From positions 198,286 to 262,285 of the forward strand of contig CAVXLD010000001.1 in assembly GCA_963762565.1 (NCBI GenBank): DNA of 64,000 bases. Direction: 5' to 3'. This document shows, one piece after another, positions 3,191 through 63,471 of this stretch (positions are counted from its first letter, which is position 1; each line of letters opens with the position of its first letter). A model generated the notes under the pieces. The model had not been told where the DNA came from. It worked only from the letters and a program-made list of their open reading frames with translations, and searched no databases. The DNA is from an uncultured Verrucomicrobiae bacterium. Lineage in GTDB: Bacteria; Verrucomicrobiota; Verrucomicrobiia; Chthoniobacterales; JAFAMB01. A program made the position numbers and the translations under genes.

Positions 3191-4276
3191 TCAAAGCGAA
3201 TTCTGAGCCCGGTGCCGTAGCCAGTGATCACAGATCACCAGAATGGCCATTGCTTCGACAATCGGCACTGCCCGAGGAAGAACGCATGGATCATGGCGGC
3301 CGCGGGCAGCCAATTCTACAGGTTCGCCCGCTACGTTCACGGTGGCCTGAGGCTGCAAAATGGTGGCGGTCGGTTTGAATGCGACCCGAAAAACGATGTC
3401 TTCACCGTTGCTAATCCCGCCTTGTATTCCACCAGAATAGTTGGACTTCGTGCGTACCCGACCACCTTGGATTTCAAACGGGTCGTTGTGTTCGGCTCCC
3501 GTCATCCGTGTGCCCGCAAACCCGGATCCAAACTCGATTCCCTTCGCAGCCGGCAGACTCAATAACGCTTTCCCCAGATCTGCCTCCAGCTTGTCAAAAA
3601 CGGGTTCACCCAGTCCGGGCGGAACACCGCGGATGACGCATTCGATGACCCCGCCAACCGAATTCCCTTCTTTCCGCATTGTCTGAATGAGCTCGATCAT
3701 TTTCGCAGCCTTCTCTGGATCCGGACACCTGACGATCGAGCTTTCGACTTGCTGAAGCGTCACCGCGTGTGAGTCGATCTCGGCTTCAAGGGAGTGTATC
3801 TGGCGGACATAAGCGACTATTTCGATCCCCGGGATAGCTTGCGCTAACACTTTTCGGGCCACAGCGGCGGCCGCTACTCGCCCAATGGTTTCACGGGCGG
3901 ATGCTCGGCCACCGCCCTGCCAATTCCGGATCCCGAACTTCGCTTGATAAGTGAAGTCTGCATGAGAAGGCCGATAGGCGGTCTCCATCTCCCGATAAGC
4001 TTCCGGCCGGGCATCCTGGTTGCGGACCATGATAGAAATTGGTGTCCCTAATGTTTTGCCCTCGAATACCCCAGACAAGATCTCACATCGGTCAGCCTCT
4101 TTTCGCTGAGTCACAATCTCGCTTTGACCAGGCCGTCGCCGATCCAACTCCACTTGAATATCCTCTTCTGAGATCGCGATTCTCGGGGGGCACCCATCGA
4201 TTACAACACCGACTCCACCCCCGTGGGACTCACCCCAGGTCATCACCCGAAATAGAACGCCAAACTGAGAAGACAT
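3191..4276 (-). CDS. aroC: Chorismate synthase
   Basis: 361 aa. [35 protein letters not shown]-like and GGISNG motifs. Confidence 0.95.
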
Positions 4277-4330: not shown

Positions 4331-4532
4331 CGGAGCTGGGAGGCGTAAGTGGACGTAGTGGACGAAGTAGACGTAGTGGACAAAGTGGACCGGGAGTGGA
4401 CGATTTAACTCCTCGCCGCCGAATCTGAGGACGTCCACTCCGTCAACTCAGTCCATTCCGTCCACTCCTGTCTACTCGGCCGCCCATGCCCGGCGCACCC
4501 CTACTAGCTCCTAGATTCCAGCTCCTAGCTCC
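4331..4532. repeat. Nested palindrome of 9-nt arrays in the aroC / lysR divergent region
   Basis: Six GTAGTGGAC-type units (4345-4401) are mirrored by five GTCCACTCC-type units (4433-4477). An outer ggagctgggagg (4332-4343) is mirrored by ctagctcctagattccagctcctagctcc (4504-4532). Confidence 0.85.
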
Positions 4533-4606
4533 TCTTTTTTACTCGCGCCCGGCGCTGTTACCGGCCAGAAACAAATAGTCGCACCGAAGACCGCCCTGAT
4601 CCTGTC

Positions 4607-7792: not shown

Positions 7793-7937
7793 TAGCGAAT
7801 CGGCGTGTGGGCGAAACGGCGAAAGGGCGAAATGGAAGCCGTACGGCGAAAGTTTCGGTGCGCCCATGACGTGCAACTTTCTATCGATGCCGACGCGCCG
7901 AGATTTTCGCCCTTTCGCCCATTCGCCCATTCGCCGG
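7793..7937. repeat. Array-bracketed element H1 (GGCGAAN arrays)
   Basis: Left gtgtgggcgaaacggcgaaagggcgaaatgg. Right ttttcgccctttcgcccattcgcccattcgccgg. The 67-nt core ends in gcgccgag, like a family-A left arm. Confidence 0.75.
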
Positions 7938-13530: not shown

Positions 13531-14381
13531 CCCTGGCGGCTCTGCTGACGTTCTTAGTGCAAGGCGCGAGATCCCAGGATTTGTCTTTGGCCGCCCAAAG
13601 CGCAGCCGTGGTTGATTCTTACTCCGGCGAATTTCTTTACACGAAAAACGCCGATGCCAAAGAATACCCGGCGAGCTCCACCAAGATTTTGACGGCGCTG
13701 ATCGTGATCGAGGCTGGCAATCTTGACCAAGTGGTAACGGTGGCTCCGGAAGATACCAAGGTCGAACCTAGCAGCCTCGATCTGAAACCGGGACAACAAT
13801 TTACGCGGCGCCAACTACTCTTCGGCATGCTGCTCAAGAGCGCCAATGACGTTGCCATGTGCTTAGCCAGAGATAATGCCGGTTCCGTCCCTGCGTTCGC
13901 CGAAAAGATGAATTTGCGGGCAGCCGAACTAGGAGCAACCTCCAGTCATTTTGTTAATCCACACGGCCTCCATGATCCCAATCACTATACGACGGCTCAT
14001 GATCTGGTCCTCATCGCGCGCGCAGCGATGCAACAGCCGCTGTTCCGTCAGATTGTTTCAACTATCTACTACACTTGGCGAACTCCCAACGGCGAAGTGG
14101 ACCAGCTACGCAACCATAACCGGTTACTCCGGCATTTCGCAGGCTGTAACGGGCTGAAAACCGGTTATACCCGGGCCGCACAGCAGGTTCTGGTGAGCTC
14201 CGCTTTGCGGGGTGGTCACGAGGTGGTCGCGGTTGTGCTTCATACCGACAAACCCGGCATCTGGGTCGATAGCAAGACCCTCTTGACCTACGGACTTATT
14301 AAGGTGGGGTGTCCAGCGGAGGATATTGTGGACACCACTGACCGGGTCGACGAGCCGGGCGATGCGGACGAAGGGAAGTGA
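13497..14381 (+). CDS. D-alanyl-D-alanine carboxypeptidase (S11, PBP5/6-like)
   Basis: Signal peptide. SSTK (SxxK), SAND (SxN) and KTG motifs. Confidence 0.85.
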   Translation: MDDGRWKTGSLALAALLTFLVQGARSQDLSLAAQSAAVVDSYSGEFLYTKNADAKEYPASSTKILTALIVIEAGNLDQVVTVAPEDTKVEPSSLDLKPGQQFTRRQLLFGMLLKSANDVAMCLARDNAGSVPAFAEKMNLRAAELGATSSHFVNPHGLHDPNHYTTAHDLVLIARAAMQQPLFRQIVSTIYYTWRTPNGEVDQLRNHNRLLRHFAGCNGLKTGYTRAAQQVLVSSALRGGHEVVAVVLHTDKPGIWVDSKTLLTYGLIKVGCPAEDIVDTTDRVDEPGDADEGK

Positions 14382-14420: not shown

Positions 14421-14701
14421 GGTGGGGCGAGGCTCCCGAACGGAAGATGTACTTTCACAGCGCCCCTCGCTGAACCTCATGAGTTGTCGGCAACACCGAT
14501 GGACCGCCGAGCCGTCGGTCTGCAGCGTTTCAATACCCCGTTAGAATGAAGAACGTGCGTAGCAGATGCTTCAGATGCGCTGATTAGTTGTACGCGCTGG
14601 GACGCGGCTCGGCACGCCAATCGGCGAAACCTCGCGCGCAGTTTCGCAAAATCGAGCCTCTTTGTCGGAGATTTTAGGTCACTCGGGAGCCTCGCCCCAC
14701 C
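14421..14701. repeat. Family A element, copy A1 (281 nt)
   Basis: TIRs ggtggggcgaggctcccgaa (14421-14440) / tcgggagcctcgccccacc (14683-14701). Internal gccgagccg (14506-14514) / cggctcggc (14605-14613). GGCGTTT units on the left flank (14384-14405). Confidence 0.9.
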
Positions 14702-14847: not shown

Positions 14848-16254
14848 ATGCCCGGCCCAGGAATGCAACAGATACAAGGGATAGGACTGCAGCAAGTTCT
14901 TGCTCCGCAGCTGCAGCAAAGTTTGCAAATTCTGCAGGCCCCCACCCTGGAGCTCAAGAATATCGTCCAACAGGAGCTTCAAACGAACCCCGTCCTCGAG
15001 GAGGACCCAAGCGTTGAAGAAGCCGAGGACCGATCCTCAGACGAAGCTGATTTTCAGGAAGAATTCGAGAAGCTGGCAAAGCTGGATGAAGAATGGCGAG
15101 ATTATATGGCGCAGAACGTCTCTTACTCTGGGCGAAGCCAGGAAGACGAAGAGCGCCGCCAGTTTTTCCTCGACTCTCTCGCGAATCAGGAAACGCTCCA
15201 GCAGCATCTATTGGAGCAGCTGAACACTGCTGATATCGATGCGAAGAAACGAAAAGCCGCCGAGCTCCTGATCGGTAACATTGATGATGTTGGCTTTCTT
15301 TCGGCTCCCCTGGACGAGATCGCCAATCTTTCCGGGACCCCGATAGAAGATTTGCTGGAAGCCCTCGAACTGCTGCAAACCTTCCATCCCGTTGGGGTCG
15401 GCGCTCGAGACCTTAGAGATTGCCTCCTCATCCAGTTGCGACGGGTCGGAAAGGCCCAGAGCCTTGAATACCAGATCGTCGACCAATATCTCGATGACCT
15501 GGGCCGTAAGCGGTATCCGGACATTGCCAGACGTCTTGGGGTGACCGTCGACCAAGTGCAAAAGGGGGCCAATTTCATTGCCACTCTTGACCCAAAACCG
15601 GGTCAGATTTTTTCACCGGAACCCAACAGCTACGTACTGCCAGATGTGGTGGTCGAAAAAGTCGGTGATGAGTATGTGGTCTCTCTCACCGGCGATCAAA
15701 TCCCTCATCTGAGGATCAATAAAACGTATCGAGATTTGATGACGCAGGGTCGCAACGGAGGCGAAGTCAGAGACTACATCCGAGAGAAAATCAGGAGCGG
15801 AAAGTTCCTAATAAAGAGTATCCACCAGCGGCAACAGACCATCCTGAATATCGCGAACGAGATCGTCAAACGGCAACGCGATTTTCTTGATTATGGAACG
15901 GCCTTTCTTAAGCCAATGACGATGGTGCAAATCGCGGACACGGTGGGTGTACACGAGACCACGGTCAGCCGGGCAATCTCAGGCAAGTACATCGCGACGC
16001 CACAAGGGGTTGTGGAAATGAAGTTTTTCTTCACCCCGGGCTATCAGACCTACGACGGCGTCGCTCTAAGCAACACCAGCGTAAAGGAAACCATTGGGGA
16101 TTTGGTTCGCAATGAGGACACTCGCATGCCGCTGAGTGACAAAGAAATTGTGGAAATCCTCTCAGAACGAGGTATCCCAATAGCGCGTCGGACCGTCGCC
16201 AAGTACAGGGCCGAGCTGAACATTCTTCCCAGCAATCTGCGAAAACAATTTTAG
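14848..16254 (+). CDS. rpoN: RNA polymerase sigma-54 factor
   Basis: Gln/Leu-rich region I (LQQVLAPQLQQSLQILQ), acidic region II, and a C-terminal HTH plus RpoN box ARRTVAKYR. Alternative start at 14863. Confidence 0.95.
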   Translation: MPGPGMQQIQGIGLQQVLAPQLQQSLQILQAPTLELKNIVQQELQTNPVLEEDPSVEEAEDRSSDEADFQEEFEKLAKLDEEWRDYMAQNVSYSGRSQEDEERRQFFLDSLANQETLQQHLLEQLNTADIDAKKRKAAELLIGNIDDVGFLSAPLDEIANLSGTPIEDLLEALELLQTFHPVGVGARDLRDCLLIQLRRVGKAQSLEYQIVDQYLDDLGRKRYPDIARRLGVTVDQVQKGANFIATLDPKPGQIFSPEPNSYVLPDVVVEKVGDEYVVSLTGDQIPHLRINKTYRDLMTQGRNGGEVRDYIREKIRSGKFLIKSIHQRQQTILNIANEIVKRQRDFLDYGTAFLKPMTMVQIADTVGVHETTVSRAISGKYIATPQGVVEMKFFFTPGYQTYDGVALSNTSVKETIGDLVRNEDTRMPLSDKEIVEILSERGIPIARRTVAKYRAELNILPSNLRKQF

Positions 16255-17019
16255 GTGCGAATTCTAATCGTTCTTCTATGGATAGGGGTATTCACGTCGT
16301 CATTAGCCAAGGAAGCCCAATTTCGTTTTCCTCAAGACACGTTCTCTTTCTCGAATAACCTCTACTTCGATTATCATCCGGATCAGTCAGGGCACATCAT
16401 CATCAGCCGCCGGGCCCCGGGGAAGATCCCGGATTACTCACGTCATTGCTTCGCCCTAGTACGGTCGGTCCTGCAGTTTAGCCGGTTCGCCGAGTTCGAT
16501 CCTAAACTCCCGAAGGTTAGCGAAGAGGAATATCGGCAAAGGGTCCTCCGATTAGACCGATACGCTCCATACGGGCCTGGTCCGGCCAAGAAAATTGTGT
16601 TTCCCGGATATCCGAATCTTTACCAGTTCTCGGCCCATCACACCCTGATGCTACAAAAGAACCTCGGCCTATGGTGGCCGGGATATTGGCGGGTGGGCAA
16701 CTGGCGAATCGTGTTTCCGGCTCCTCGTTCCGGTCAAGAACAGTTTGCGCAATGGTTACGCCAACATCTTGACACAGGCCAGATCGAAGCCGTGTACATC
16801 ACACGATTTCGGCCGATCAACCATTGTTTAGTAGCCTACCGTTATACCACCGAACGAAATAGCGACCTGTTATTCTTTGTCTACGACGTCAACCAACCGG
16901 GAAAGATAGTTCATCTGCGGTATCACGTGGCCAATCGAAGCTTCTATTTTGACCCGAGCTGGTATTACGCCGGAGGGTTAGTTTCCGCCATGAAGTTGTA
17001 CGTCTCGCCGCTGATGTAA
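16255..17019 (+). CDS. Hypothetical secreted protein
   Basis: The GTG start abuts the rpoN stop. N-terminal signal peptide MRILIVLLWIGVFTSSLA. No domain recognised. Confidence 0.5.
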   Translation: MRILIVLLWIGVFTSSLAKEAQFRFPQDTFSFSNNLYFDYHPDQSGHIIISRRAPGKIPDYSRHCFALVRSVLQFSRFAEFDPKLPKVSEEEYRQRVLRLDRYAPYGPGPAKKIVFPGYPNLYQFSAHHTLMLQKNLGLWWPGYWRVGNWRIVFPAPRSGQEQFAQWLRQHLDTGQIEAVYITRFRPINHCLVAYRYTTERNSDLLFFVYDVNQPGKIVHLRYHVANRSFYFDPSWYYAGGLVSAMKLYVSPLM

Positions 17020-17034
17020 GGGGCCAGAAAAGTT

Positions 17035-17270
17035 GGTGGGGCGAGGCTCCGGAACTACGATTTTGTGTTCACAGGGGAGTTGATGCACTTAACCCAGCGC
17101 TCACAATTTCGATACGCTGCCGAGCCGCTGTTCTGTCGTGTGGCCGGCACCTTATTCCATGGGAGATCAGGGGAATCGGCTCGGCGGTCCTTCCGGCCTA
17201 ACGTTGCGTCCGGCGTCAAATCATCGAGGTCTCCGATATAGCGTCCGGTCTTTCGGGAGCCTCGCCCCAC
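17035..17270. repeat. Family A element, copy A2 (236 nt)
   Basis: TIRs 17035-17054 / 17252-17270. Internal 9-mers 17119-17127 / 17177-17185. Followed by cgtttcgcccattcg units. Confidence 0.9.
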
Positions 17271-17412
17271 TAATGCCCGCCGTTTCGCCCATTCGTTGCG
17301 TTTTGGTGGTTACAGTAATTGTTGCGTTCTTTCCGGTAGAAAAATCGGGAAAAGCAAGATAAAAATATAACGCCATCTCCCGCAGGCGTGTTATCATAAA
17401 GGCGATTGTATC

Positions 17413-19077: not shown

Positions 19078-19722
19078 ATGCCGATCATAAATTACGCGAG
19101 CAAAGAAATTCAGTTCAAGATCGTCTATTACGGGCCGGCCCTGAGCGGCAAAACGACTACCATTGCCTATATCCATTCGAGGTTGCCGGCTGCGTTTCGA
19201 GGAGATTTGGTGTCGTTGGCCACCGCGGCAGACCGCACCCTCTTTTTCGATTTCTTGCCGGTTGAGGCAGTGATCTTGCAAGGCTTCAAAACCAAATTCC
19301 AGCTCTACACCGTTCCGGGGCAGGTGGTGTACAATACAACCCGGCAGTTAGTCTTACGCAGCGTTGACGGCATCGTATTTGTGGCCGATTCGCACTGGGA
19401 CAAGATCCACGAAGATGTGGAGAGTTTCCGAAATCTCGAGGAAAACCTTCGCAAACAGCATCTCTCATTGGACGAGATCCCGTATGTTCTGCAGTACAAC
19501 AAACGTGACTTGCCCGATGCGGCTCCGGTGTCGTACTTAGAATTTTTGCTGAATAACCGGCGCCGACGCGCCCGAAGTTACGAAGCGATCGCAACGAAAG
19601 GACGGAGCGTCTTCGCTGCATTAGATGCCGTGACCCAAAGCGTTCTTAACCGGTTCATTCAAGAGAATCACCTTCTCAGGCCGATGCCGGCCAGAGAGAG
19701 CGCTGGGGCGGGGAGAGTGTGA
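19078..19722 (+). CDS. mglA: MglA-type Ras-like small GTPase
   Basis: KIVYYGPALSGKTTT P-loop, DRTLFFDFLP, LYTVPGQV switch II and YNKRDLP match my recollection of Myxococcus MglA along the whole length. Confidence 0.9.
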   Translation: MPIINYASKEIQFKIVYYGPALSGKTTTIAYIHSRLPAAFRGDLVSLATAADRTLFFDFLPVEAVILQGFKTKFQLYTVPGQVVYNTTRQLVLRSVDGIVFVADSHWDKIHEDVESFRNLEENLRKQHLSLDEIPYVLQYNKRDLPDAAPVSYLEFLLNNRRRRARSYEAIATKGRSVFAALDAVTQSVLNRFIQENHLLRPMPARESAGAGRV

Positions 19723-19947
19723 ATGGTGATTGGTGATTGGTGGGGCGAGGCTCCCGAAAGGCCTTTTAGTCTTATCAAGCGGGTCAGTTCTCACCCGGAG
19801 ATTATGTCCGCTACGCCGATAAACCCGCCGAGCCGTTGGTCCACGCGAACCATGGCTCGGCAGCGTTTCGGCATAGGTCGTATCGTGGTGAGGATCTTCC
19901 CCCTGCCTTGCGATCGTCATCAGGCCTTTCCGGAGCCTCGCCCTACC
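19718..19947. repeat. Family A element, copy A3 with GTGATTG array on the left
   Basis: The array gtgtgaatggtgattggtgattgg contains the mglA stop. TIRs 19739-19758 / 19928-19947. Minimal central hairpin gccgagccgttggt-ccacgcga-accatggctcggc. Confidence 0.9.
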
Positions 19948-21061: not shown

Positions 21062-21783
21062 AGCCAGCGGCGCGCTCCCTGCAAAATTCCATTTTCGATT
21101 GGGATCGCCCGAGATGGAACGGACGGTTGCTGTGGCTAATTGTGTTTTCTTTAGGCCTACACTTCGCGGGACTTTACGTTTTCCATGTTGTTTACCCGTC
21201 AACCACTTCTCTGCCTCCCCCAGCGGCTCAAGTCTCGGTACTGAATCCACAAAACCCACAGGACCGCCGGCTCCTTGATTGGGTGGACCTAAACGATCCG
21301 TCTGCGATTAGCGCCCCCAAAGTAGACGACAGCCTGGTCGCAAAATTAGTCCCGGGTTATCGTCCGACGTTTAGCGACGAGACCCCTGAAATCCGGAAAA
21401 GCCAGGCCGGCGCCCCAGCCCAGGAGGCGGCTACTCCTTCGCTTTTTACTCCCGACAATCTTTTCCCTAGGCAAGTCAGGCCTGCTTCTGTTCAACGGAA
21501 GACCAGTTTCGCAAGCCACCTTGAGTTCGGGCCCGCCTTGGAAAATAGAAAACCGGCCACACCGGAGAGACTCCCGACCAGCCAGCGGCTCTCAGAACCC
21601 ACGACTTTCTTTGTGGGAATCAATAAGAAAGGCGAAGTAAAATACCTTTTTCTATTGCGAACTTCGGGAAATGATCAGCTGGATCATCTTGCCGAAGAGG
21701 CTGTTAAGCAGCTGAGATTTCAGCCCGATAACACCGAGAGCTGGGACACGGTTTCGCTGCAGTGGGGCAGCGGCGGGAAGTGA
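21058..21783 (+). CDS. TonB-like / hypothetical anchored protein
   Basis: GTGA overlap with exbD. N-terminal TM, Pro-rich linker, and a C-terminal ~70 aa (VKYLFLLRTSGNDQLDHLAEEAVKQLRFQP) compatible with a TonB C-terminal fold. Weak assignment. Confidence 0.45.
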   Translation: MKPAARSLQNSIFDWDRPRWNGRLLWLIVFSLGLHFAGLYVFHVVYPSTTSLPPPAAQVSVLNPQNPQDRRLLDWVDLNDPSAISAPKVDDSLVAKLVPGYRPTFSDETPEIRKSQAGAPAQEAATPSLFTPDNLFPRQVRPASVQRKTSFASHLEFGPALENRKPATPERLPTSQRLSEPTTFFVGINKKGEVKYLFLLRTSGNDQLDHLAEEAVKQLRFQPDNTESWDTVSLQWGSGGK

Positions 21784-21990
21784 TTAGTGATTAGTGATTA
21801 GTGATTGGTGATTGGTGGGGCGCTGGGGCGATGAAAAAACGTGTAACATGGACGCGGACTGGCACTAATACACTTATAAGTCCCGTCTTGTCATAAGCCC
21901 CATCGATATCAGCCGCGCACATCCTTGCTCTAAACGCTTTTCCATCAGCCCAGGCACCCACTAATCACCAATCACTAATCACCAATCACC
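21781..21990. repeat. TGATTAG/TGATTGG array-bracketed element (A-related variant)
   Basis: The left 5 heptamers begin with the TGA stop of the tonB-like gene and are followed by tggggcgctggggcg. Right cccactaatcaccaatcactaatcaccaatcacc. The core lacks the canonical A TIR. Confidence 0.8.
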
Positions 21991-22055
21991 TTCCCTGCCC
22001 TATTGACGCACCCGCCCCTCCGCGGGACGATGTTGGTAGCGGCCACAAACTGTCC

Positions 22056-23532: not shown

Positions 23533-24780
23533 GTGATGAGCGATAGACGTGTTGTAGTCACCGGGTTGGGTGTTATCACACCAATCGGTAATGACCTTAA
23601 AACCTTTTGGGAGAACCTTGTAGCGGGGAAAAACGGGATCCGTAAGATCTCGCATTTCGACGCCTCCATCTTCGACTGTCACATTGCCGGCGAGGTGCCA
23701 GATTTCGATCCCATTACGTATCTGGCTAATCCTAAGGACGTTCGGCGGACCGACCGTTTTTCCCAATTTGCTCTGGCCTGCTCAAAGCGGGCCCTAGAAG
23801 ACAGTGGTCTCGATCTGGAACGCATCGACCGCACTCGGGTCGGCGTCCTGGTCGGCAGTGGGATCGGCGGCTTGAGCACACTGGAGACCCAACATGTGGT
23901 TTTCTTGAAGAAAGGCCCTTCCAGAGTGTCTCCCTTCATGGTGCCAATGATGATCGTGAACATGGCCAGCGGATTAATCGCGATGGAATACGGCTTTGAA
24001 GGCCCGAATTATTCTATCGTGACCGCTTGTGCCACCTCCGCGAACTCCATTGGCGAAGCTTGGAGGATGATTCGCGATGATGAAGCCGAGATTTTCTTGG
24101 CCGGCGGTACCGAGGCGGTCATCAATAATCTTGGCCTCGGCGGCTTCTGTGCGATGCGGGCGATGAGCACGAGAAACGATGAACCGCACCGGGCATCGCG
24201 CCCATTCGATAGGGAACGAGACGGGTTCGTGATGGGTGAAGGCGGTGGAGTCTTAATTCTCGAGGAGTACGAACACGCAAAGGCTCGAGGGGCACGCATC
24301 TACTGCGAACTCGCTGGTTATGGACTTACCTGCGATGCTTACCACATGACCGCGCCCAAACCCGATGGGACGCCGGTAGCGCGAGGGATGCAAATCGCCG
24401 CGAAGCGGGCCGGCGTTAATCCGACGGATATTGATTACATCAACGCTCACGCCACATCGACACAGGTCGGCGATGTTTGCGAAACGAATGCGATTAAACG
24501 GTTCGCCGGTGATTACGCGAAAAATGGTCTTTTGATTAGCTCAACCAAATCGATGATTGGTCATCTGCTCGGCGGCGCTGGAGCAGTAGAAAGCGCGGTC
24601 TGCATCCTTGCCATGCAACATGGTGTGGTGCCGCCCACGATCAATCTCGACAATCCTGACCCTGAGTGCGACCTCGACTACGTCCCAAATGTCGCACGCG
24701 AGAAAAAAGTACGAGTCGCACTTAATAATTCGTTTGGCTTCGGCGGCCACAACGCATCGCTTTGTTTCAAAGCATTGTAG
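23533..24780 (+). CDS. fabF: 3-oxoacyl-ACP synthase II
   Basis: RRVVVTGLGVITPIG, ACATS active-site Cys, HATST and GHLLGGAG motifs. Confidence 0.95.
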   Translation: MMSDRRVVVTGLGVITPIGNDLKTFWENLVAGKNGIRKISHFDASIFDCHIAGEVPDFDPITYLANPKDVRRTDRFSQFALACSKRALEDSGLDLERIDRTRVGVLVGSGIGGLSTLETQHVVFLKKGPSRVSPFMVPMMIVNMASGLIAMEYGFEGPNYSIVTACATSANSIGEAWRMIRDDEAEIFLAGGTEAVINNLGLGGFCAMRAMSTRNDEPHRASRPFDRERDGFVMGEGGGVLILEEYEHAKARGARIYCELAGYGLTCDAYHMTAPKPDGTPVARGMQIAAKRAGVNPTDIDYINAHATSTQVGDVCETNAIKRFAGDYAKNGLLISSTKSMIGHLLGGAGAVESAVCILAMQHGVVPPTINLDNPDPECDLDYVPNVAREKKVRVALNNSFGFGGHNASLCFKAL

Positions 24781-24939
24781 GGGGCGTTTGGCGTTCGGCG
24801 TTCGGCGTTTGGCGTTCGGCGTTCGGCGTTCCTATGATTCGAAATGATTGCAACACTGCGGATCTGTCGTGGCTCGTGAGCAAGCGACGCGCGTTATTGA
24901 AGCGCCGAACGCCAAACGGTGAACGCCGAACGCCAAACG
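24781..24939. repeat. Array-bracketed element G1 (GGCGTTY arrays)
   Basis: Seven GGCGTTY units (24781-24830) start 1 nt after the fabF stop. A 71-nt core follows. The inverted array gcgccgaacgccaaacggtgaacgccgaacgccaaacg is at 24902-24939. Confidence 0.85.
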
Positions 24940-25800
24940 AGTAAGTACGTCGTTCTTCTGCTCCTGACCGCATTGTTTTGGTCGTTGGGAGGAGTCCTCA
25001 TCAAGTCCATCGATTGGAATCCTGTCGCCATTGCGGGTTCGCGAAGCTTGATCGCCGTCTTCCTAATCGCCATCCTGCGACCGTCCGCCGTCCGTAAATT
25101 TTCCTGGACCGCATTCTTCGGCGGAATCGCCTACATGGTGACAGTTGTGTTGTTCGTGATTGCAACCAAGCTGACAACCGCTGCCAATGCCATTTTTCTC
25201 CAGTACACGGCTCCGATTTATATCGCTCTGATAAGCCCATGGCTTTTGAAGGAACGTGTTCGTCGACTGGACTGGATTCTGATCGGTCTTGCTTTCGGCG
25301 GAATTGCTCTCTTTTTCTGCGACCGGCTCTCCTTTGCCGGAATTTGGGGAGTAATGGCCGCACTTGTCAGCGGCTTCTCCTACGCGTGGCTTACGATGCT
25401 GTTGCGTCGCCAAAAATCGGCATCCCCCGAAGCCACGGTGTTCATAGGCAACTTGATGACTGTGTTAGTGGCGGCTCCGGCGATGTGGCCGCCGGTGAAC
25501 CTGGGCCATAATTGGCCTTGGCTGCTTGCCTTGGGCGTCCTCCAGCTCACGATTCCCTATTTGCTTTATACACAGGCTATCCGGCATGTGCGTGCGCTGG
25601 ATGCATCTATAATCAGCATGATCGAGCCGATCCTTAATCCGATCTGGGTCATGTTTGCCGTGGGCGAACATCCCGCCAGATGGGCAATCGTCGGAGGATG
25701 CATGGTCCTGGGAACCTCTTTGCTACGGAGTATCTTCGCCTCGCGCGAGCCCGAATCCGAATTCGCCTTAGGCTCATCCGGAATGACAAATGACAGATGA
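24919..25800 (+). CDS. DMT (EamA) family transporter
   Basis: About 10 TM helices in two EamA-like halves. The start is uncertain because the first codons lie in the GGCGTTY-type array. The stop and last ~13 codons lie in element F1. Confidence 0.75.
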   Translation: MNAERQTSKYVVLLLLTALFWSLGGVLIKSIDWNPVAIAGSRSLIAVFLIAILRPSAVRKFSWTAFFGGIAYMVTVVLFVIATKLTTAANAIFLQYTAPIYIALISPWLLKERVRRLDWILIGLAFGGIALFFCDRLSFAGIWGVMAALVSGFSYAWLTMLLRRQKSASPEATVFIGNLMTVLVAAPAMWPPVNLGHNWPWLLALGVLQLTIPYLLYTQAIRHVRALDASIISMIEPILNPIWVMFAVGEHPARWAIVGGCMVLGTSLLRSIFASREPESEFALGSSGMTNDR

Positions 25801-25902
25801 AAAATGACAGATTGGGAAATCCTTCGGTCACACGCGTTCTATTTCGGACATTTGTCATCTGTCATTTGTCATTTGTCATTCGAAACGAGCCTCAGGCGAG
25901 TT
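25760..25902. repeat. Family F element, copy F1 (143 nt)
   Basis: aattcgccttaggctcatccggaATGACAAATGACAGATGAAAAATGACAG, core attgggaaatccttcggtcacacgcgttctatttcggac, then the inverted TGTCATY array and cgaaacgagcctcaggcgagtt. Confidence 0.9.
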
Positions 25903-26329
25903 TCGCCGTGTACGTATTCGCAGTGCCAGACAGACACACGACTCCATCCTGATTGCGCACAGTGGTGGCAAGCGTGCAGATCGGTTTGTCGTCACGAACA
26001 GTTGTGACTTCAACCCTGCCGGTAATCACATCTCCGACGTAGACTGCTTTAACAAACTTCCATTCTACCCCGAGAAACACCGTGCCGGGGCCAGGGAGAT
26101 CTTCGGCCACGATCGCGTTCAAAATTCCGGAAGTGATGCCTCCCTGAACGATCAATCCGCCAAACACTGATCTCCCAGCAACTTCGCGGTCATAATGTAA
26201 CGGATTCCGGTCGCCGGTGATCTCTGTAAATAGCGCGATGTCGCGCTCGCTGACTGTTCGGGATCGCTCTGCCGAATCGCCAACTCTCGGTTTCCCACGA
26301 ATTGTTCCCGCCCAACCGTCACTCTTCAT
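25892..26329 (-). CDS. MaoC-family (R)-specific enoyl-CoA hydratase/dehydratase
   Basis: 145 aa hot-dog fold. ITGDRNPLHYD motif. Confidence 0.85.
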   Translation of the reverse strand: MKSDGWAGTIRGKPRVGDSAERSRTVSERDIALFTEITGDRNPLHYDREVAGRSVFGGLIVQGGITSGILNAIVAEDLPGPGTVFLGVEWKFVKAVYVGDVITGRVEVTTVRDDKPICTLATTVRNQDGVVCLSGTANTYTAKLA

Positions 26330-26343
26330 GATGTGACCTCCGG

Positions 26344-26486
26344 ACTCGCCTTAGGCTCGTCCGCAATGACAAATGACAAATAACAGATGACAGATTGGGA
26401 ATTCCTTCGGTCACACGCATTTCTATTTCGGAGATTTGTCATTTGTAATTTGTCATCTGCCATTCCGAACGAGCCTCAGGCGAGTT
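26344..26486. repeat. Family F element, copy F2 (143 nt)
   Basis: Same layout as F1. Core attgggaattccttcggtcacacgcatttctatttcggag. The right end ccgaacgagcctcaggcgagtt supplies the stop of the ABC ATPase gene. Confidence 0.9.
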
Positions 26487-27231
26487 CGGCTTCTGTGAGC
26501 GCTGCTAACACCCGTTCCTTCCAAGCCGTGAAGGCATGATCCTGTCGAGAACGAGGCCGAGGAAGATCGATCCGAAATTGGCGATGAATTTGTCCGGGGC
26601 GTCCCTTGATCACAACGATGCTGTCGGATAATGCGACCGCTTCTTCAATATCGTGCGTCACGAAAAACATGGTCAACGAATGCCTCGCAAAAAGCTCCAT
26701 CAAATGGTCTTGCAGCCGGCTTCGGGTGAGAGCATCGAGGGCGCTAAACGGCTCGTCCAGCAATAGAAGAGATGGTTTTCGCACTAAGGCTCTGGCTATC
26801 GCCACCCTTTGAGCCATCCCTCCCGACAATTGGCGCGGGTAATAATGGGAGAAGGATTCTAAACCAACTTGCTCCAGAATTTCCTTCGCCAACGCTCCGA
26901 TCCGGCTATGCCCGGCCGGGCCGAACCCGAATTCCACATTTTGGCGAACGGTCAGCCACGGCATGAGTCGGGGCTCTTGAAACACGACGCCTAGGTTGGG
27001 GCGTTCGGCATTTGGCGTTTGGCGTTCGGCGTTCGGCGCACGATCGCTATCCCAGCGGATTTCTCCGGAGGTCGGGCGCTCAAGTCCAGCTAGAATCCGC
27101 AACAGCGTGCTTTTGCCCGAGCCGGTCGTACCCACCATCACCGTGACTTGTTGCGGCTCGATCGAAAGCTCAAGATTAGCAATCACCAAAGCGTCACCGT
27201 AAGCCTTCGTTATCTGATCGATTCTTACCAT
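26476..27231 (-). CDS. ABC transporter ATP-binding protein, NitT/TauT (SsuB/TauB-like) family
   Basis: Walker A GTTGSGKST, signature LSGGMAQR, Walker B LLLLDEP. The true start is probably MVRIDQI at 27231, since the track start at 27330 reads through element F3. It contains an in-frame heptamer-array insertion. Confidence 0.9.
   Translation of the reverse strand: MVRIDQITKAYGDALVIANLELSIEPQQVTVMVGTTGSGKSTLLRILAGLERPTSGEIRWDSDRAPNAERQTPNAERPNLGVVFQEPRLMPWLTVRQNVEFGFGPAGHSRIGALAKEILEQVGLESFSHYYPRQLSGGMAQRVAIARALVRKPSLLLLDEPFSALDALTRSRLQDHLMELFARHSLTMFFVTHDIEEAVALSDSIVVIKGRPGQIHRQFRIDLPRPRSRQDHAFTAWKERVLAALTEAELA
26994..27042. repeat. GGCGTTY heptamer array inside the ABC ATPase coding sequence
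   Basis: ggttggggcgttcggcatttggcgtttggcgttcggcgttcggcgcacg. Translated on the minus strand it gives APNAERQTPNAERPN, between the Walker A region and the VVFQEPRLMPW Q-loop. Confidence 0.85.
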
Positions 27232-27243
27232 TGAACTCGCTGA

Positions 27244-27377
27244 GGCTCCTTCAAGATGACAATGACAGATGACAGATGACAAATGTCCGAAATAGACCGC
27301 GCGTGACCGAAGGATCTCCCAATCTGTCATCTGTCATTTGTCATTCCGAACGAGCCTCAGGCGAGTTCGGCTGATAG
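27244..27377. repeat. Family F element, copy F3 (core inverted relative to F1/F2)
   Basis: aactcgctgaggctccttcaagATGACAATGACAGATGACAGATGACAA, core atgtccgaaatagaccgcgcgtgaccgaaggatctcccaatc, then TGTCATCTGTCATTTGTCATtccgaacgagcctcaggcgagtt. Confidence 0.9.
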
Positions 27378-28230: not shown

Positions 28231-28524
28231 TTGTGTCCTGTCCCATAAGTAACATGGCTTTCGCCGTCGGCCAGTTGGCTGTTTTTCAAGGCGCGAGCGA
28301 AGCGCCCATATCTGGTTCATACGGGTCGAGCGAGCAACGCGGAAAAACAGCCAACTGGCCACGGCCCGGAGGGTTGCGATGAAAATGGGCCGGCGGCTGC
28401 GTTGCTCGTCGGTTACGTATCGATCAAGATATGCGCCCTCTACCGCCAGTCCGGCTCGGACCGCCTTGCCGGCGGCCCATTTTGATCGCAACGAAAGCCA
28501 TGTTACTTATGGGACAGGACACTA
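28231..28524. mobile_element. Family D MITE-like element, copy D1 (294 nt)
   Basis: About 33-nt TIRs: tgtgtcctgtcccataagtaacatggctttcg / cgaaagccatgttacttatgggacaggacacta. It fills the gap between the SBP stop (28522-28524) and the permease start (28216). About 96% identical to D2. Confidence 0.9.
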
Positions 28525-30018: not shown

Positions 30019-31053
30019 ATGATGAACTATCGTTTACTCGGTCGGAGCGGGCTGCGAGTTTCGGAGCTCTGCTTAGGAACCATGACCTTCGGGGAAGATT
30101 GGGGTTGGGGAGCTCCCAAGGATGAAGCACGGAAAATCTACGACGCGTTTCGCGAAGCCGGCGGCAATTTTATCGATACGGCTAACGTTTATACGCAGGG
30201 TTCGAGCGAAACCTTTCTCGGCGAGTTCTTTTCGGAACACCGTGATAGCGTGGTTCTCGCCACGAAATACACCAATGCGCTAACCACCAATGACCCGAAT
30301 GCCGGGGGAAACCAGCGCAAGAATATGATGCAAGCCGTTGAAGGCAGTTTGCGTCGCCTGAAAACCGATTACATCGACCTCTATTGGCTTCATATCTGGG
30401 ATCAAATGACGCCAGTTGAAGAAGTGATGCGCGCCTTCGATGACCTGGTTCGCCAAGGTAAAGTCCTTTATGTCGGCGTTTCCGATGCACCTGCCTGGTG
30501 GATCAGTAAAGCGAATACGATCGCTGAGCTCCGTGGATGGTCGCCCTTCGTCGGTCTGCAGATTGAGTATTCACTGATCGAACGTACGGTCGAACGGGAG
30601 CTGATTCCGGCAGCGAAACATCTTGGGCTCACGGTCACCGCCTGGTCACCTTTAGCGGGTGGCGTTCTCACCGGCAAATATGCGTCAGGCGAAGCCACCG
30701 ACTCCCGTTATTCTACCGAAATGATGAAACAATGGTTACCAGAGCAAACTCGGACTGCTCGCATCGTTGAGGCTCTTCAGAATGTCAGTAAACAGACCGG
30801 ACGGAGTAAAGCCCAGATCGCATTGGCTTGGCTGCGACATCGCGCCGTCCCGGTTATCCCTATTGTGGGCGCCCGCAAACTGACTCAGCTTGAAGACAAC
30901 ATCGCCAGTCTGACACTCACTCTCACTCCGGACCAACTGGCCTTATTGGATGAGGCCAGTCAGATCGAGCTCGGTTTCCCGTACCACTTCTACGCTAACG
31001 AGATGGTCCGCACGTTCGTGTACGGCGGTGTAAGGGACCACATAATCACGTGA
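30019..31053 (+). CDS. Aldo/keto reductase
   Basis: YRLLGRSGLRVSELCLGTMTFG, IDTANVY and LYWLH motifs. Confidence 0.9.
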   Translation: MMNYRLLGRSGLRVSELCLGTMTFGEDWGWGAPKDEARKIYDAFREAGGNFIDTANVYTQGSSETFLGEFFSEHRDSVVLATKYTNALTTNDPNAGGNQRKNMMQAVEGSLRRLKTDYIDLYWLHIWDQMTPVEEVMRAFDDLVRQGKVLYVGVSDAPAWWISKANTIAELRGWSPFVGLQIEYSLIERTVERELIPAAKHLGLTVTAWSPLAGGVLTGKYASGEATDSRYSTEMMKQWLPEQTRTARIVEALQNVSKQTGRSKAQIALAWLRHRAVPVIPIVGARKLTQLEDNIASLTLTLTPDQLALLDEASQIELGFPYHFYANEMVRTFVYGGVRDHIIT

Positions 31054-31345
31054 TTAGTGATTAGTGATTGGCGATGGCGCTGGTCGGGCGAGGCTCCCGA
31101 AAGAACTAAAGTCTCTAACGAAGATCCAGACGTTTCGGCCTGAAAGAGTTTGTTAGGCCGATCGGTGTGCCGAGCCGTGGTTCCGCGCGTAACCCGGCTC
31201 GGCGCGTTGCTAGAAGTAGCATGCCTTCTTAATTCGGAATGCGAAGGGAGATGGAAAATCACAGAGTCTTTCGGGAGCCTCGCCCTACCAACGGCGTCTC
31301 ATCCACCATCACCTCTCACCAATCACCAATCACTTCTCACCTTCT
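31051..31345. repeat. Family A element, copy A5 with inverted TGATTAG-type arrays
   Basis: The array starts on the aldo/keto reductase TGA stop. TIRs 31082-31101 / 31270-31289. Central hairpin gccgagccgtggtt-ccgcgcgt-aacccggctcggc. Right array atcaccaatcaccaatcact (to ~31345). Confidence 0.9.
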
Positions 31346-34492: not shown

Positions 34493-34600
34493 CCTGAACT
34501 CCCCGACTCCGCAAAGCCTACGTCGCGGCAAGCCTTGAACTCCCCGACTTCGCAGAGCCTACGTCGCGGCAGGCCTTGAACTCCTTGAACTCCTTGAGCT
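34493..34600. repeat. Tandem repeat: 2 x ~40 nt followed by 3 x 9 nt
   Basis: cctgaactccccgactccgcaaagcctacgtcgcggcaag (34493-34532), ccttgaactccccgacttcgcagagcctacgtcgcggcagg (34533-34573), then ccttgaact ccttgaact ccttgagct. Confidence 0.85.
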
Positions 34601-38767: not shown

Positions 38768-38817
38768 CCATGGAAGACATCCCCCAACCTGCCTTTGGCC
38801 GACGCAATTCGGACCCG

Positions 38818-39022
38818 GAGGGGAGCCGCTTTATCGTTAGGCAGCTCTGTAATTCGGCAGCAAGCGGCTCCCGAGAACGGCCCCGGATGATGCAGGTCTA
38901 TTGGGCAGCCATATCGACCAGCTTGGAACAGAGCCGCTGGGCAAATATTTACGCTGGGTTATTCCCGGGAGCCGCCTGCTGCCAACTGATAGGACTGCCA
39001 CACTACAAAGCGGCTCCCCTCC
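38818..39022. repeat. Family B element, copy B3 (205 nt)
   Basis: Outer repeats 38818-38834 / 39006-39022. Inner repeats 38853-38877 / 38962-38985. The right flank ctgggcatgcgacgcc resembles the B2 flank. Confidence 0.9.
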
Positions 39023-39068
39023 AGGCGCTGGGCATGCGACGCCGTGTTCTTAGAAGCACGAAGCGCAC

Positions 39069-40944: not shown

Positions 40945-41762
40945 AATCCCTCTTCAGTTACTATCGATGGTTGGTCTTGCTTCTGGTAGCGAGTTTTTGC
41001 CTGGTTCCATTGTGGGCAACCGTCGTGGGTGGGTTTAAGTCGACGGGTGACCTCCGTACGAATGCTCTCGGCTTGCCCCGGCAGTGGCTGGTAGACAATT
41101 ATATTTCCATCGTCTCGACTCCGCGGTTTTGGCAGATGCTTTGGAATTCGGCTGTGATCGCCTTTTTCACGGTCGTACTAACATTGATAGTCAGTTCACT
41201 AGCTGCATATACTCTAGCTCATTTGCGCTTCGCTGGGCGCAAATGGATCGCCAACTACCTGACCCTGGGACTGACTTTCCCGTTCGCCACTGCAGTCTTG
41301 CCAGTATTTATTCGGGTTCGCGATCTCGGCCTGCTCGACACCTACTGGGGCGTCATCCTCCCCCAAGTCGCCTTTAACTTAAGCTTTAGCATCGTGTTGC
41401 TGCGCGGTTTCTTCTCAGAGTTACCAAAGGAATTGTTTGAAGCTGCGATCATGGATGGTTGCAGTTATCCACGAATCTTTTTGCGCATTACCCTGCCGCT
41501 CTCTCGCCCGATCCTGGCCACTGTCGGCGTTCTGGCTCTGGTCGGAAGCTGGAACAACTTCCTTTTGCCATTGGTTACCATCAATGACGACTCCGTTTAT
41601 CCATGGCCTTTAGGAATCATGCAGTTTCAAGGTCAATACAGCACCGACTGGGGGAAGGTGCTGGCTTTCGTAACCCTCACCATGCTTCCCGCTATCACGC
41701 TGTATCTGATGGCCCAGAAACAGGTCATTGCCGGCCTTACTTCGGGAGCCGTTAAGGGTTAG
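40941..41762 (+). CDS. Carbohydrate ABC transporter permease
   Basis: MalG-type permease with the loop EAAIMDGCSYPRIFLRITLPLSRP. ATGA overlap with the upstream permease. Confidence 0.85.
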   Translation: MKSLFSYYRWLVLLLVASFCLVPLWATVVGGFKSTGDLRTNALGLPRQWLVDNYISIVSTPRFWQMLWNSAVIAFFTVVLTLIVSSLAAYTLAHLRFAGRKWIANYLTLGLTFPFATAVLPVFIRVRDLGLLDTYWGVILPQVAFNLSFSIVLLRGFFSELPKELFEAAIMDGCSYPRIFLRITLPLSRPILATVGVLALVGSWNNFLLPLVTINDDSVYPWPLGIMQFQGQYSTDWGKVLAFVTLTMLPAITLYLMAQKQVIAGLTSGAVKG

Positions 41763-41897
41763 CGTTTGGCGTTTGGCGTTCGGCGTTGGCAGTTGGTAGC
41801 GCTCGAGCTCAGTAAGCGGTTTTCTTCTACATAGCGCTCATTATTTTGGGACGACCACGGCCGCCTTTCACCTTTCACTTCTCACTGATCACTAACC
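41763..41897. repeat. Hybrid array element G2 (GGCGTTY array left, CCTTTCA/CTNATCA array right)
   Basis: cgtttggcgtttggcgttcggcgttggc starts 1 nt after the permease stop. Right side cctttcacctttcacttctcactgatcactaacc. The two arrays are not complementary. Confidence 0.7.
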
Positions 41898-46648: not shown

Positions 46649-46894
46649 GGTGGGGCGAGGCTCCGGAATAACCTGAAATGGCAAACGGAGAACTCGATTT
46701 AGTCTAAACCGAGATCGCGCTTCGCCAATGGGCGCGCCGAGCCGATCCCAGCGTGTGGCAGCCGACGATCGGTCAGGGGGGGTGGAACATGCTGGGACCG
46801 GCTCGGCGCGTTTAGCGGCATCGCCCACGATAGATTGGCAAACATTGACGTCCTCCGCTCGAGCAAAGCGGCCGTTCGGGAGCCTCGCCCCACC
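46649..46894. repeat. Family A element, copy A6 (246 nt)
   Basis: TIRs 46649-46668 / 46875-46894. Internal 9-mers 46736-46744 / 46799-46807. Confidence 0.9.
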
Positions 46895-50796: not shown

Positions 50797-50992
50797 GGGC
50801 GAATAGGCGAAACGGCGAGTGGGTCAATGGGCGAAAAGGCGACAACGCGTCAGAATCATCTCTGAACGCTATGGCAGAAAACTCGACGGTCTCGCGACAC
50901 GAGTTGCTGTTTCAGACAAACGCAGCGGTTTTGAGCCGTTCCGCGGGCACCCTCGCCGTATCGCCCTTTTCGCCCACTCGCCGTTTCGCTCC
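50797..50992. repeat. Array-bracketed element H2 (GGCGAAN arrays)
   Basis: Left gggcgaataggcgaaacggcgagtgggtcaatgggcgaaaaggcgac. Right cctcgccgtatcgcccttttcgcccactcgccgtttcgctcc. 107-nt core. Confidence 0.8.
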
Positions 50993-54834: not shown

Positions 54835-54883
54835 TCTGGTGGTTATCCATTCGTGGTTCGTAAACGGCCAGAGGTGGTCCGGC

Positions 54884-55200
54884 AGTAAGCGGTAAGCAGT
54901 AAGCAGTGGTCAGTACTACGAGCTAAAATCCAGGAGCTAGGAGGGCCGACGGCTGTGGAGCGTGCCTCGCTTGCGAGTCCGTGGTGAGCAAGGCTCATTA
55001 CGTGACATCCCCATCGTCGGCGTACGCTCTTTTGTCTGAAGAGGCAAACCTTGCGATACAGAGCGCTGACCGACATAGGGCATGTGTCGTGGTTCACCCT
55101 TGCTCTCCAACGGCCTCGCAAGCGAGGCACGCTCCACGGCCGTCGCCCCTCCTAGCTCCTAAATTCTAGCTCCTAGCTCCTAAACTGCTTACTGCTTACT
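54884..55200. repeat. Family E element, copy E2, with two nested layers of inverted arrays
   Basis: AGTAAGC units then AGCTAGGAG units on the left. TIRs 54955-54993 / 55098-55137. CTCCTAGCT units then GCTTACT units on the right. Confidence 0.9.
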
Positions 55201-57037: not shown

Positions 57038-57046
57038 CCTCGGATT

Positions 57047-57194
57047 GGTGAGCGAGGCTCCGGCACGACAAAATGCATTGCCAAACCCAGCGATAGGCCC
57101 GGCTCGGCGAGCTGTGCAGCGTTGCACCGGTCAAGTAGGGGCAGCATAGCGGCTTTGCGAAAATCGATCGGTCGTTCGGGAGCCTCGCCCTACC
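57047..57194. repeat. Family A half element A8 (left TIR joined to right half)
   Basis: ggtgagcgaggctccggca (57047-57065), only cggctcggc (57100-57108), a 66-nt right arm, and TIR ttcgggagcctcgccctacc (57175-57194). Confidence 0.75.
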
Positions 57195-61035: not shown

Positions 61036-61317
61036 GGTAGGGCGAGGCTCCCGAACATCCCGACATCTTCGCAACGCCGGGGATGATCTTCTACCAGTGT
61101 ATTAACGTGGCCGATCAGCGCGCCGAGCCGTTGGTCCCAGCGAGTTCCATGACCCACAAGAACGGATCGAAGGTTTTTAAAAGTTCTCGCACGTCGAAGC
61201 GGTTAAATCAGCGCTGGGTAAATCGGCTCGGCGGGCAGACCGGGGCTGGACGCGTTTAATCCAAAAAATCACGGGCCCTGCGAAAGTGCATTCGTAATTC
61301 GGGAGCCTCGCCCTACC
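61036..61317. repeat. Family A element, copy A9 (282 nt)
   Basis: TIRs ggtagggcgaggctcccgaa (61036-61055) / ttcgggagcctcgccctacc (61298-61317). Internal 9-mers 61122-61130 / 61224-61232. Confidence 0.9.
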
Positions 61318-63342: not shown

Positions 63343-63413
63343 CGTCGCCGATACGCCCATTCGCCCTTTCGCCCGTTCGCCGATACGCCCACACGCCGAC
63401 ACGCCCATACCCC
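63343..63413. repeat. One-sided NTTCGCC-type array upstream of cdsA
   Basis: cgtcgccgatacgcccattcgccctttcgcccgttcgccgatacgcccacacgccgacacgcccatacccc. No mirrored partner on the left of B4. Confidence 0.7.
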
Positions 63414-63471
63414 CCAGCTACCTCTGGACGCCACGTGCCCATTATGGCAGGCTCCGCCGCAACATTCCTTC

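Follow-up and report, generated by a model that had tools for sequence, protein, structure and literature searches.

Since 2007, an over-representation of simple sequence repeats (SSRs) with heptamer units has been noted in bacteria, and we know of no accepted origin or role for them. One such class, the cyanobacterial STRR heptanucleotide repeats, was reportedly described by Mazel et al. in 1990. The closest described system is that of Xanthomonas, in which GGGAATC heptamers are intergenic, lie near stop codons, vary between species and are transcribed, with no known function (Rehm et al. 2015, PMC4692102). Each Xanthomonas genome holds 70-75 convergent pairs of arrays with the G-rich array 5' on each strand, and Nostoc has a heptamer counterpart, GGGGAYT (PMC4692102). 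Among the TAACTGA repeats of Beggiatoaceae and cyanobacteria a single inverted case was recorded in 170 sets (MacGregor 2015, PMC4679880). The stretch of DNA analysed here (the window, 64,000 nucleotides at full length) comes from a soil lineage of Chthoniobacterales (Verrucomicrobiota), and the element under study, at 24781-24939, lies between a fabF-like gene and eamA, which encodes an EamA-family transporter. In the literature that could be searched we found no description of such elements in Verrucomicrobia. With moderate confidence we read this element and others like it in the window as long SSR palindromes shaped at the DNA level by slippage, by template switching or recombination from arm to arm, and by flipping of the spacer.

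The focal element is built of two convergent heptamer arrays around a core (Table 1), and the limits drawn by Tandem Repeats Finder (TRF) agree with a preliminary description of seven GGCGTTY units, a 71-nt core and an inverted array. TRF reads the left arm as GGCGTTC x7.0 with 92% matches, and finds on top of it a higher-order period of 21 nt with 100% matches. Both arms have their unit variants in the order T-C-C-T-C, and the left arm is identical to the reverse complement of the right at 36 of 39 positions, in register from the outer end. The arms of the element at 50797 likewise have the variant order AAAC-AGTG-AAAA in common, bar one extra unit. Such mirrored order is not reproducible by slippage acting independently on each array, so either one arm was copied from the other or both came from one inverted duplication. 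The focal element folds into one long hairpin as RNA from either strand (-93.6 kcal/mol, z -7.7, and -84.7 kcal/mol, z -8.9) and as DNA (-61.7 kcal/mol, z -9.0), and none of 200 shuffles folds as well. The GTG start codon of eamA (24919) and its codons 1-7 (VNAERQT) lie inside the right arm; eamA orthologues begin with MN or VN immediately ahead of a membrane helix.

Relatives, gathered through protein homologues and contig look-ups (215 fetched loci, 2.1 Mb; the non-syntenic L214 and L219 were left out), indicate how such elements change. Identical fabF genes occur in nine contigs from metagenome-assembled genomes (MAGs) and ENA assemblies, homologues bear the names Verrucomicrobia or Chthoniobacterales, and the nearest FabF in a collection with one genome per species is 65% identical. 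Over 21 kb one strain is 99.6% identical to the window, and within the 159 nt of the focal element it differs by a complete unit and by three C>T changes. Where the window's left arm has 7 units, four conspecific assemblies have 6, along with C/T changes in the units, and among conspecific strains TTC units are replaced by TTT units in a graded manner, a homogenisation of the arm. One strain (L003) has a 40-nt segment of the core replaced by one holding extra units; a template-switch copy of the left core was considered for this segment and set aside, the match being too short to call. The core is single-copy in the window and in the 2.1 Mb, apart from its orthologues, and the same holds for the cores of the elements at 7793, 50797 and 41763, each single-copy in both.

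The sister species has a FabF 92% identical and is represented by three independent assemblies (an NCBI MAG, a JGI contig and an ENA contig). Its arms, degenerate GGCGTTY and RAACGCC arrays, are colinear with the arms and flanks in the window, but the 74-nt core between them aligns solely as a reverse complement (score 43, against 12 in the forward orientation and against a mean of 13.8 and a maximum of 25 in 1000 shuffles). The core has a single orientation in all six assemblies of the window's species, and the opposite one in each of the three from the sister species. An artefact of assembly was considered and rejected: the arms (37-49 nt) are shorter than assembler k-mers, the three and six independent assemblies agree within their species, and the cores have diverged by substitutions. 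The sister hairpin is no more stable than shuffles (z -1.2), and two relatives at 84% and 79% FabF identity have spacers of 39 and 100 nt, without arrays.

Under the reading favoured here, each element consists of two convergent arrays of a 7-9-nt unit, which make up the arms of a stem of 30-50 bp, and of a non-repetitive spacer between them; the whole fills the gap between two genes. Replication slippage would expand, contract and homogenise the units, as the differences between strains show. One arm would be copied from the other, by intramolecular template switching or by recombination in the palindrome, to give mirror arms, and the same interaction between arms would occasionally flip the spacer, as the inverted core between fixed orthologous arms shows. 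Arms that go without renewal would decay, as the sister hairpin, no longer significantly stable, has done. Because a stem of tandem repeats pairs in any register, such palindromes tolerate unequal unit numbers. At 7793 at least, the unique core must have come from insertion or duplication. Effects on expression, through a stable hairpin after the upstream stop codon and through the covering of the eamA start, are likely side effects and not the reason for the elements. Three handles go beyond the Xanthomonas description: arms that mirror each other down to variant order, a spacer that has flipped between fixed arms in sister species, and occupants that alternate in one gap. Together they point to copying internal to the palindrome as what pairs the arrays.

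The alternation of occupants is seen at several sites. Intergenic sites are hot spots of turnover: an array hairpin, a palindrome of family A or family D, or nothing at all may occupy a given gap, and older array hairpins also have palindromic families nested in them. At 7793 an outgroup (L220) has an empty site, its two convergent stop codons separated by 1 nt, and another species (L216) has a complete family A copy of 287 nt. The 50797 element is kept in a conspecific strain (L215), and between the same conserved flanks the sister species (L213) has in its place a palindrome of family D, of the kind found at 28256 and 33518. At 21779, after an ExbD-adjacent gene, the window has AGTGATT arrays and a unique core, and the sister species an intact family A copy bracketed by CGTGCTC arrays. 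Of the nested element at 54882-55200, only the outer GCAGTAA arrays (54882/55184) are conserved in the sister species, which lacks the inner CTAGGAG arrays as well as the family C palindrome. The second copy of the AATGACA family is an insertion at a point where the genes of the sister species overlap by 4 nt.

The focal element is one of many in the window. A TRF census (7-9-nt period, at least 2.8 copies, with 30 Markov shuffles as control) found 26 arrays of 2.9-8.6 copies, against a mean of 0.03 in the shuffles. Non-coding DNA, which makes up 14.4% of the window, holds 89% of the array bases, and about 20 of the 26 arrays stand in convergent pairs around a core, which makes about 10 pairs. 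At least 10 unrelated units are in use: GGCGTTY, GGCGAAAN, AGTGATT/GTGATTR, AATGACA/AGATGAC, GCAGTAA, CTAGGAG, AAGTGGACG, GTTCTAGG and others. The cores are of several types, being unique (the focal elements, 4347-4477 and 21779-21992), shared (the 39-nt core common to the three neighbouring copies of the AATGACA family, which also have terminal inverted repeats, TIRs) or a whole palindromic family (A or C). At the start of the core at 21779 stand 11 nt left over from a family A terminus. Arrays adjoin or overlap stop codons, and most begin 0-20 nt past the stop. Neighbouring arrays of differing types are common, and a second one-sided array lies at 4504-4533.

Table 1. Coordinates of array elements and related features, numbered from the first letter of the window.
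Feature	Position	Strand	Description
Hairpin between divergent genes	4347-4477	.	AAGTGGACG x6 / CGTCCACTC x5, 28-nt core
7793 element, left arm	7806-7832	.	GGCGAAAN 8-mers
7793 element, core	7833-7905	.	73 nt by TRF limits; holds 10-mer ACGCGCCGAG
7793 element, right arm	7906-7937	.	TTCGCCCA x3.8
Hairpin	21779-21992	.	AGTGATT x5.6 / YAATCAC x4.6, 141-nt core
fabF-like gene, stop codon TAG	24778-24780		Upstream of focal element
Focal hairpin, left (5') arm	24783-24831	.	(GGCGTTY)x7, unit pattern T-C-C-T-C-C-C; begins 2 nt past fabF stop
Focal hairpin, core (spacer)	24832-24902	.	71 nt, non-repetitive
Focal hairpin, right (3') arm	24903-24939	.	Inverted (RAACGCC)x5.3; TRF unit CGCCGAA x5.3
AATGACA family, copy 1	25760-25915	.	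TIR GAAYTCGCCTKAGGCTCG, heptamer arrays, conserved 39-nt core; not in sister species
AATGACA family, copy 2	26342-26475	.	Clean ~146-nt insertion relative to sister species
AATGACA/AGATGAC family, copy 3	27232-27370	.	Also in sister species
Family A copy (31082-31289) in arrays	31050-31342	.	GTGATTA arrays left, TCACC-type arrays right
Hybrid element, left array	41763-41796	+	GGCGTTY-type units, starting at stop codon TAG (41760-41762)
Hybrid element, core	41797-41863	+	67 nt
Hybrid element, right array	41864-41897	+	CCTTTCA/TCACNNN units; right-arm type of 21959 and 31304
50797 element, left arm	50798-50842	.	Degenerate GGCGAANN x5.6
50797 element, core	50843-50952	.	110 nt
50797 element, right arm	50953-50989	.	
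Nested element	54882-55200	.	Outer GCAGTAA/ACTGCTT arrays, inner arrays, family C palindrome 54957-55135
Nested element, inner arrays	54930-54944 and 55148-55182		AGGAGCTAGGAG/CTCCTAGCTCC
One-sided array	63346-63414	.	CGCCCATA x8.6, right of family B palindrome

The elements at 7793 and 50797, which the preliminary description set beside the focal one, do have the layout of a core bracketed by arrays, but the arrays, read there as GGCGAAN heptamers, have a period of 8, and the 50797 pair is degenerate (66-67% matches by TRF). The core at 7793, given as 67 nt and likened in length to a family A arm, is six nucleotides longer by the TRF limits. At 41763-41897 the two arrays are non-complementary, as had been observed; TRF reads the left one as GCGTTTG x3.7-4.7, and the element folds at only -29.6 kcal/mol for 136 nt, with no long stem. 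Its combination of GGCGTTY on the left with TCAC on the right recurs independently in an unrelated metagenome contig (L117), and the hybrid is most simply explained as a deletion between two adjacent hairpins or as two one-sided arrays. Arrays had been proposed to behave as modules that can be combined, lost or substituted for TIRs. Modular they are, in that arrays, cores and palindromic families vary independently across species (at the 21779 and 54882 sites, in L117 and in the one-sided arrays). Substitution for the TIRs of a mobile element is not borne out, for each of the three focal cores occurs once in the window and the 2.1 Mb of fetched relatives, and no target-site duplication is apparent.

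Arrays of this kind are not confined to the window. Conspecific and sister loci have 60 of them per 100 kb, with 25 inverted pairs of adjacent arrays in 117 kb; the figure is 13 per 100 kb for three relatives at a greater distance, and 3.6 per 100 kb for the surroundings of fabF in 80 diverse bacteria. The clear cases among these 80 are other members of the Planctomycetes-Verrucomicrobia-Chlamydiae (PVC) superphylum: a Phycisphaerales contig (L024 3498-3585) has, directly upstream of fabF, (GTTAGTK)x4, a core of 27 nt and (ACTAACR)x5, and a Pontiellaceae contig (L014 111-227) has (GTTATTS)x6, a core and (AATAWCM)x8. Heptamer arrays and hairpins may thus be spread over the PVC superphylum and allied phyla. 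An Omnitrophota contig (L012) has heptamer arrays near fabF at 3540-3570, 13744-13783 and 16982-17020. A scan of JGI metagenomes for four GGCGTTY units returned at least 120 contigs with a GC content of 46-71%. Among the matches listed, 78 arrays have full flanks; the inverted partner lies downstream in 11 and upstream in 1, 18 have only arrays of other types downstream, and 49 have none. The preliminary description had held that arrays occurring equally often without any core would count against it, and on this the evidence is divided, with 49 of the 78 listed metagenome arrays partnerless and about 20 of the 26 in the window paired.

Several points weigh against the favoured reading. The 7793 site is empty in the outgroup, so that 164 nt including a unique 73-nt core were gained; slippage alone cannot create this core, and some insertion or inverted-duplication event is needed. 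The array-bearing AATGACA family clearly inserts as a unit, which makes mobility of array-armed elements possible in principle. Nor does a purely neutral DNA model predict the bias in topology: among 54 inverted pairs in the window and the loci, the 5'-side arm of either strand has more G than C in 42, a G-rich and C-poor arm, and less in 9. The 11 downstream partners against 1 upstream among the listed metagenome matches point the same way. Finally, we infer template switching from the mirrored order of variants and have not observed it.

Could the array-only elements then be mobile elements resembling MITEs (miniature inverted-repeat transposable elements), possibly decayed copies of family A, in which arrays replace TIRs as exchangeable modules? 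We consider this unlikely, although part of the evidence favours it. The 7793 site, empty in the outgroup, holds a family A copy in a related species; the 21779 core keeps its 11 nt of family A terminus where the sister species has an intact copy; and the AATGACA family, with TIR, arrays and core, makes a clean 146-nt insertion. Membership of family A is defined by the termini TTGGTGGGGCGAGGCTCCCGAA / TTCGGGAGCCTCGCCCYACCAA and an inner hairpin GCCGAGCCG...CGGCTCGGC, which the focal elements do not have, and no family A terminus was found within 2 mismatches in any of the three, as the preliminary description had stated; the hybrid at 41763 has none either. The fragments that it took to resemble family A arms are literally present in the cores, yet the similarity is at chance level. 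In Smith-Waterman comparisons with seven family A copies, p values against shuffles and random segments were 0.71/0.83 for the core at 24832, 0.31/0.46 for that at 50843 and 0.64/0.80 for that at 41797. The core at 7833 is marginal (0.037/0.048, non-significant after four tests), and its score rests on the 10-mer ACGCGCCGAG, which it has in common with the family A inner motif. Compared with the orthologous family A copy in L216, the 7793 element scores 20 against 18.1 +/- 2.3 in shuffles and does not align, matching in one 10-mer only, and outside family A the window has 3 copies of CGCGCCGAG, the 9-mer core of that 10-mer, where 1.44 would be expected. A MITE would also have dispersed copies that share sequence, whereas the focal cores are single-copy within the window and the 2.1 Mb. 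No target-site duplication was seen: the 7793 junctions, compared with the empty site in L220, have no evident direct repeat, and the other focal sites are without an alignable empty allele. At the fabF-eamA gap the arms are orthologous and fixed and only the core has flipped, and most of the listed GGCGTTY arrays of metagenomes are solitary. On the other side, family A interiors cannot be aligned among copies, so that lost homology is not decisive. Some array hairpins may descend from family A, such as that at 21779 with its 11-nt terminus, because family A itself conserves only its ~22-nt termini and a 10-bp hairpin. The focal array-only elements cannot be demonstrated to derive from family A, and nothing shows them to transpose.

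Selection on RNA would be another source of such hairpins, which might serve as factor-independent terminators or protectors of 3' ends, as occluders of the eamA start, or as both. Most arrays begin just past stop codons and the three GTGATTR arrays supply the TGA themselves, the RNA fold of the focal element is extremely stable and its right arm covers the eamA start, and comparable Xanthomonas repeats are transcribed. The bias in topology may also be relevant. As the duplex is identical in either topology, the bias calls for a kinetic or mechanistic cause and not for one in duplex thermodynamics, and we suggest avoidance of Rho loading: a G-rich 5' arm with a C-rich 3' arm would leave no C-rich stretch exposed for Rho, whichever the direction of transcription. 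However, no terminator-like match was found at the focal element, whose loop is 71 nt and whose stem is followed by AGTAAGTACG without a U-tract; an intrinsic terminator would have a GC-rich hairpin, a loop of 3-8 nt and then a U-tract. In seven elements of known transcription direction, folding energies and G-U counts of sense and antisense RNA have no consistent bias, on average the two strands fold equally well, and at 21779 and 54880 it is the antisense strand that folds better, by 15-18 kcal/mol. In the sister species the pairing has not been kept, and other relatives lack the element; elements also lie between divergent genes (4347-4477); and Rfam covariance models at the gathering score gave 0 matches across the whole window, which also holds 0 tRNA genes. 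An origin of the hairpins in selected RNA function therefore seems to us quite improbable. To an invertible DNA switch (inverton), with the arrays as its inverted repeats and a flip that alters expression of the adjacent gene, we give hardly any credence. The core is indeed inverted between fixed arms in the sister species, and the element abuts the eamA start codon. Its orientation is uniform within each species (6 assemblies versus 3), though, which argues for fixation rather than switching. A promoter scan of the focal core found nothing convincing (one weak 9/12 match, mostly within the left arm), no recombinase was seen among the neighbouring genes, and cores differ at every locus.

Two further candidates were rejected. 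G-quadruplexes require at least four tracts of three or more Gs, and GGCGTTY, GGCGAAAN, AGTGATT, AATGACA and GCAGTAA have no GGG run. Repetitive extragenic palindromic (REP) sequences and REPINs do not fit either: they have a conserved high-copy palindrome of 20-40 nt with a GTAG/CGTC head, whereas the arms here consist of short repeats whose sequence changes with the locus. A bolder proposal would make array-armed palindromes a PVC-wide system, whose register-tolerant arms actively flip spacers, keep their own palindromic form and serve as preferred landing pads for palindromic mobile families, with the constant topology (G-rich arm 5' on both strands) set by a specific enzyme or by selection against Rho loading, and with flips or changes in unit number switching genes at some loci, such as eamA at its start codon. 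We hold this to be very unlikely. Slippage, arm-to-arm copying and spacer flipping at the DNA level remain the reading that we favour.

Family A has features of its own. Copies lie at 14421-14701, 17035-17271, 19739-19947, 31082-31289, 46649-46894 and 61036-61317, and presence/absence differences between species show the family to be mobile. Conserved among them are only the ~22-nt termini and the 10-bp inner hairpin (GCCGAGCCG/CGGCTCGGC), and the intervening segments of 60-90 nt defy alignment from copy to copy, an unusual property in a mobile family of repeats. A short copy at 57044-57194 is a deletion derivative that has lost ~175 nt: the conspecific L215 (reverse complement, 16040-16260) has extra sequence there, including a second family A terminus, and the deletion is bounded by the direct repeat CACGAC. 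In family B, the palindrome at 38788-38994 (spacer 38768-39068) holds, within 200 nt, about 24 of the 65 substitutions that separate the window from L087, a strain 99.6% identical to it, a cluster that suggests import by recombination or hypermutation of the element's interior.

Arrays also enter into genes and their ends. The first unit of all three GTGATTR arrays (19719-19722, 21779-21783 and 31050-31053) provides the TGA stop codon of the upstream gene, and most units of 5' arms (AGTGATT, AATGACA, GCAGTAA, CTAGGAG and TAGTGGACG) place stops in all three frames, read inward from either flank. The last 14 codons of eamA and its stop (SEFALGSSGMTNDR*) lie in the TIR and first heptamer units of an AATGACA element, at 25760-25800, and the EamA protein of the sister species has a different end. 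Within the minus-strand ABC ATPase gene at 26476-27231, a (GGCGTTY)x5.6 array stands in frame at 27000-27038 and adds ~12 residues (APNAERQTPNAE in the protein of conspecific strains) between Walker A and the Q-loop, giving a length of 251 residues versus 239 in the sister species. The peptide NAERQT is encoded both by this array and by that at the eamA start. One conspecific strain is missing 708 nt, including a MaoC dehydratase gene (L004 5226-5229 versus L001 5226-5935; about 25761-26470 in the window), from the left TIR of AATGACA copy 1 to the right TIR of copy 2, with a short palindromic scar, GAATTCGCCTAGCAGGCGAGTT. At 34495-34597, between divergent genes, an CCTTGAACT x2.7 array comes after a tandem repeat of 41 nt (2.2 copies with 93% matches). 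Elements built of arrays have practical consequences for their hosts and for those who assemble them: they extend or replace gene termini (both ends of eamA, and a loop in the ABC ATPase), they mediate deletions, as in the strain that lost MaoC, and they break short-read assemblies, many of the metagenome matches lying at contig ends.

How does the window compare with the systems already described? Its arrays have all four characters of the convergent long-SSR class (Mrazek 2007; Rehm 2015): head-to-tail units of 5-11 nt in at least 2-4 copies, an excess in non-coding DNA near gene ends, variation among relatives, and convergent inverted pairs. Like the SSRs of Xanthomonas, which average ~4-6 copies, they are tandem 7-nt units in intergenic DNA within tens of nucleotides of stop codons, vary in unit number and sequence between relatives, and have the same bias in topology. 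They differ from those SSRs in the number of unrelated units, at least 8-10 of 7, 8 and 9 nt; these are mostly without G-tracts, so the G-quadruplex rationale does not apply to them. The STRR and TAACTGA repeats resemble the window's arrays as intergenic tandem heptamers beside start or stop codons, with several units per genome and often with stops in all frames, but they are almost exclusively direct and one-sided. With REPs, bacterial interspersed mosaic elements (BIMEs), REPINs and MITEs such as Correia and ERIC the elements have in common that they are short intergenic palindromes, form DNA or RNA hairpins, turn over by presence and absence, and nest. REPs and MITEs are defined by conserved multi-copy sequence, with a REP-associated tyrosine transposase (RAYT) or target-site duplications, whereas the focal elements have only their repeat architecture in common, with unique cores and internally repetitive arms. 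Hairpin-associated minute inversions in chloroplast non-coding DNA, reportedly described by Kelchner and Wendel in 1996, offer a likeness of another kind: spacers flip between close lineages while the arms stay, which is attributed to recombination or template switching in the hairpin. There, however, the stems are plain inverted repeats of organelle DNA, and those of the window are arrays of tandem repeats in a bacterial chromosome. Compared with Xanthomonas, then, what is new is the multiplicity of units, the long cores, unique or made of whole palindromic families and sometimes with two levels of nesting, the variant order mirrored between arms and the inversion of the spacer, neither of them reported there, and the host phylum, Verrucomicrobiota.

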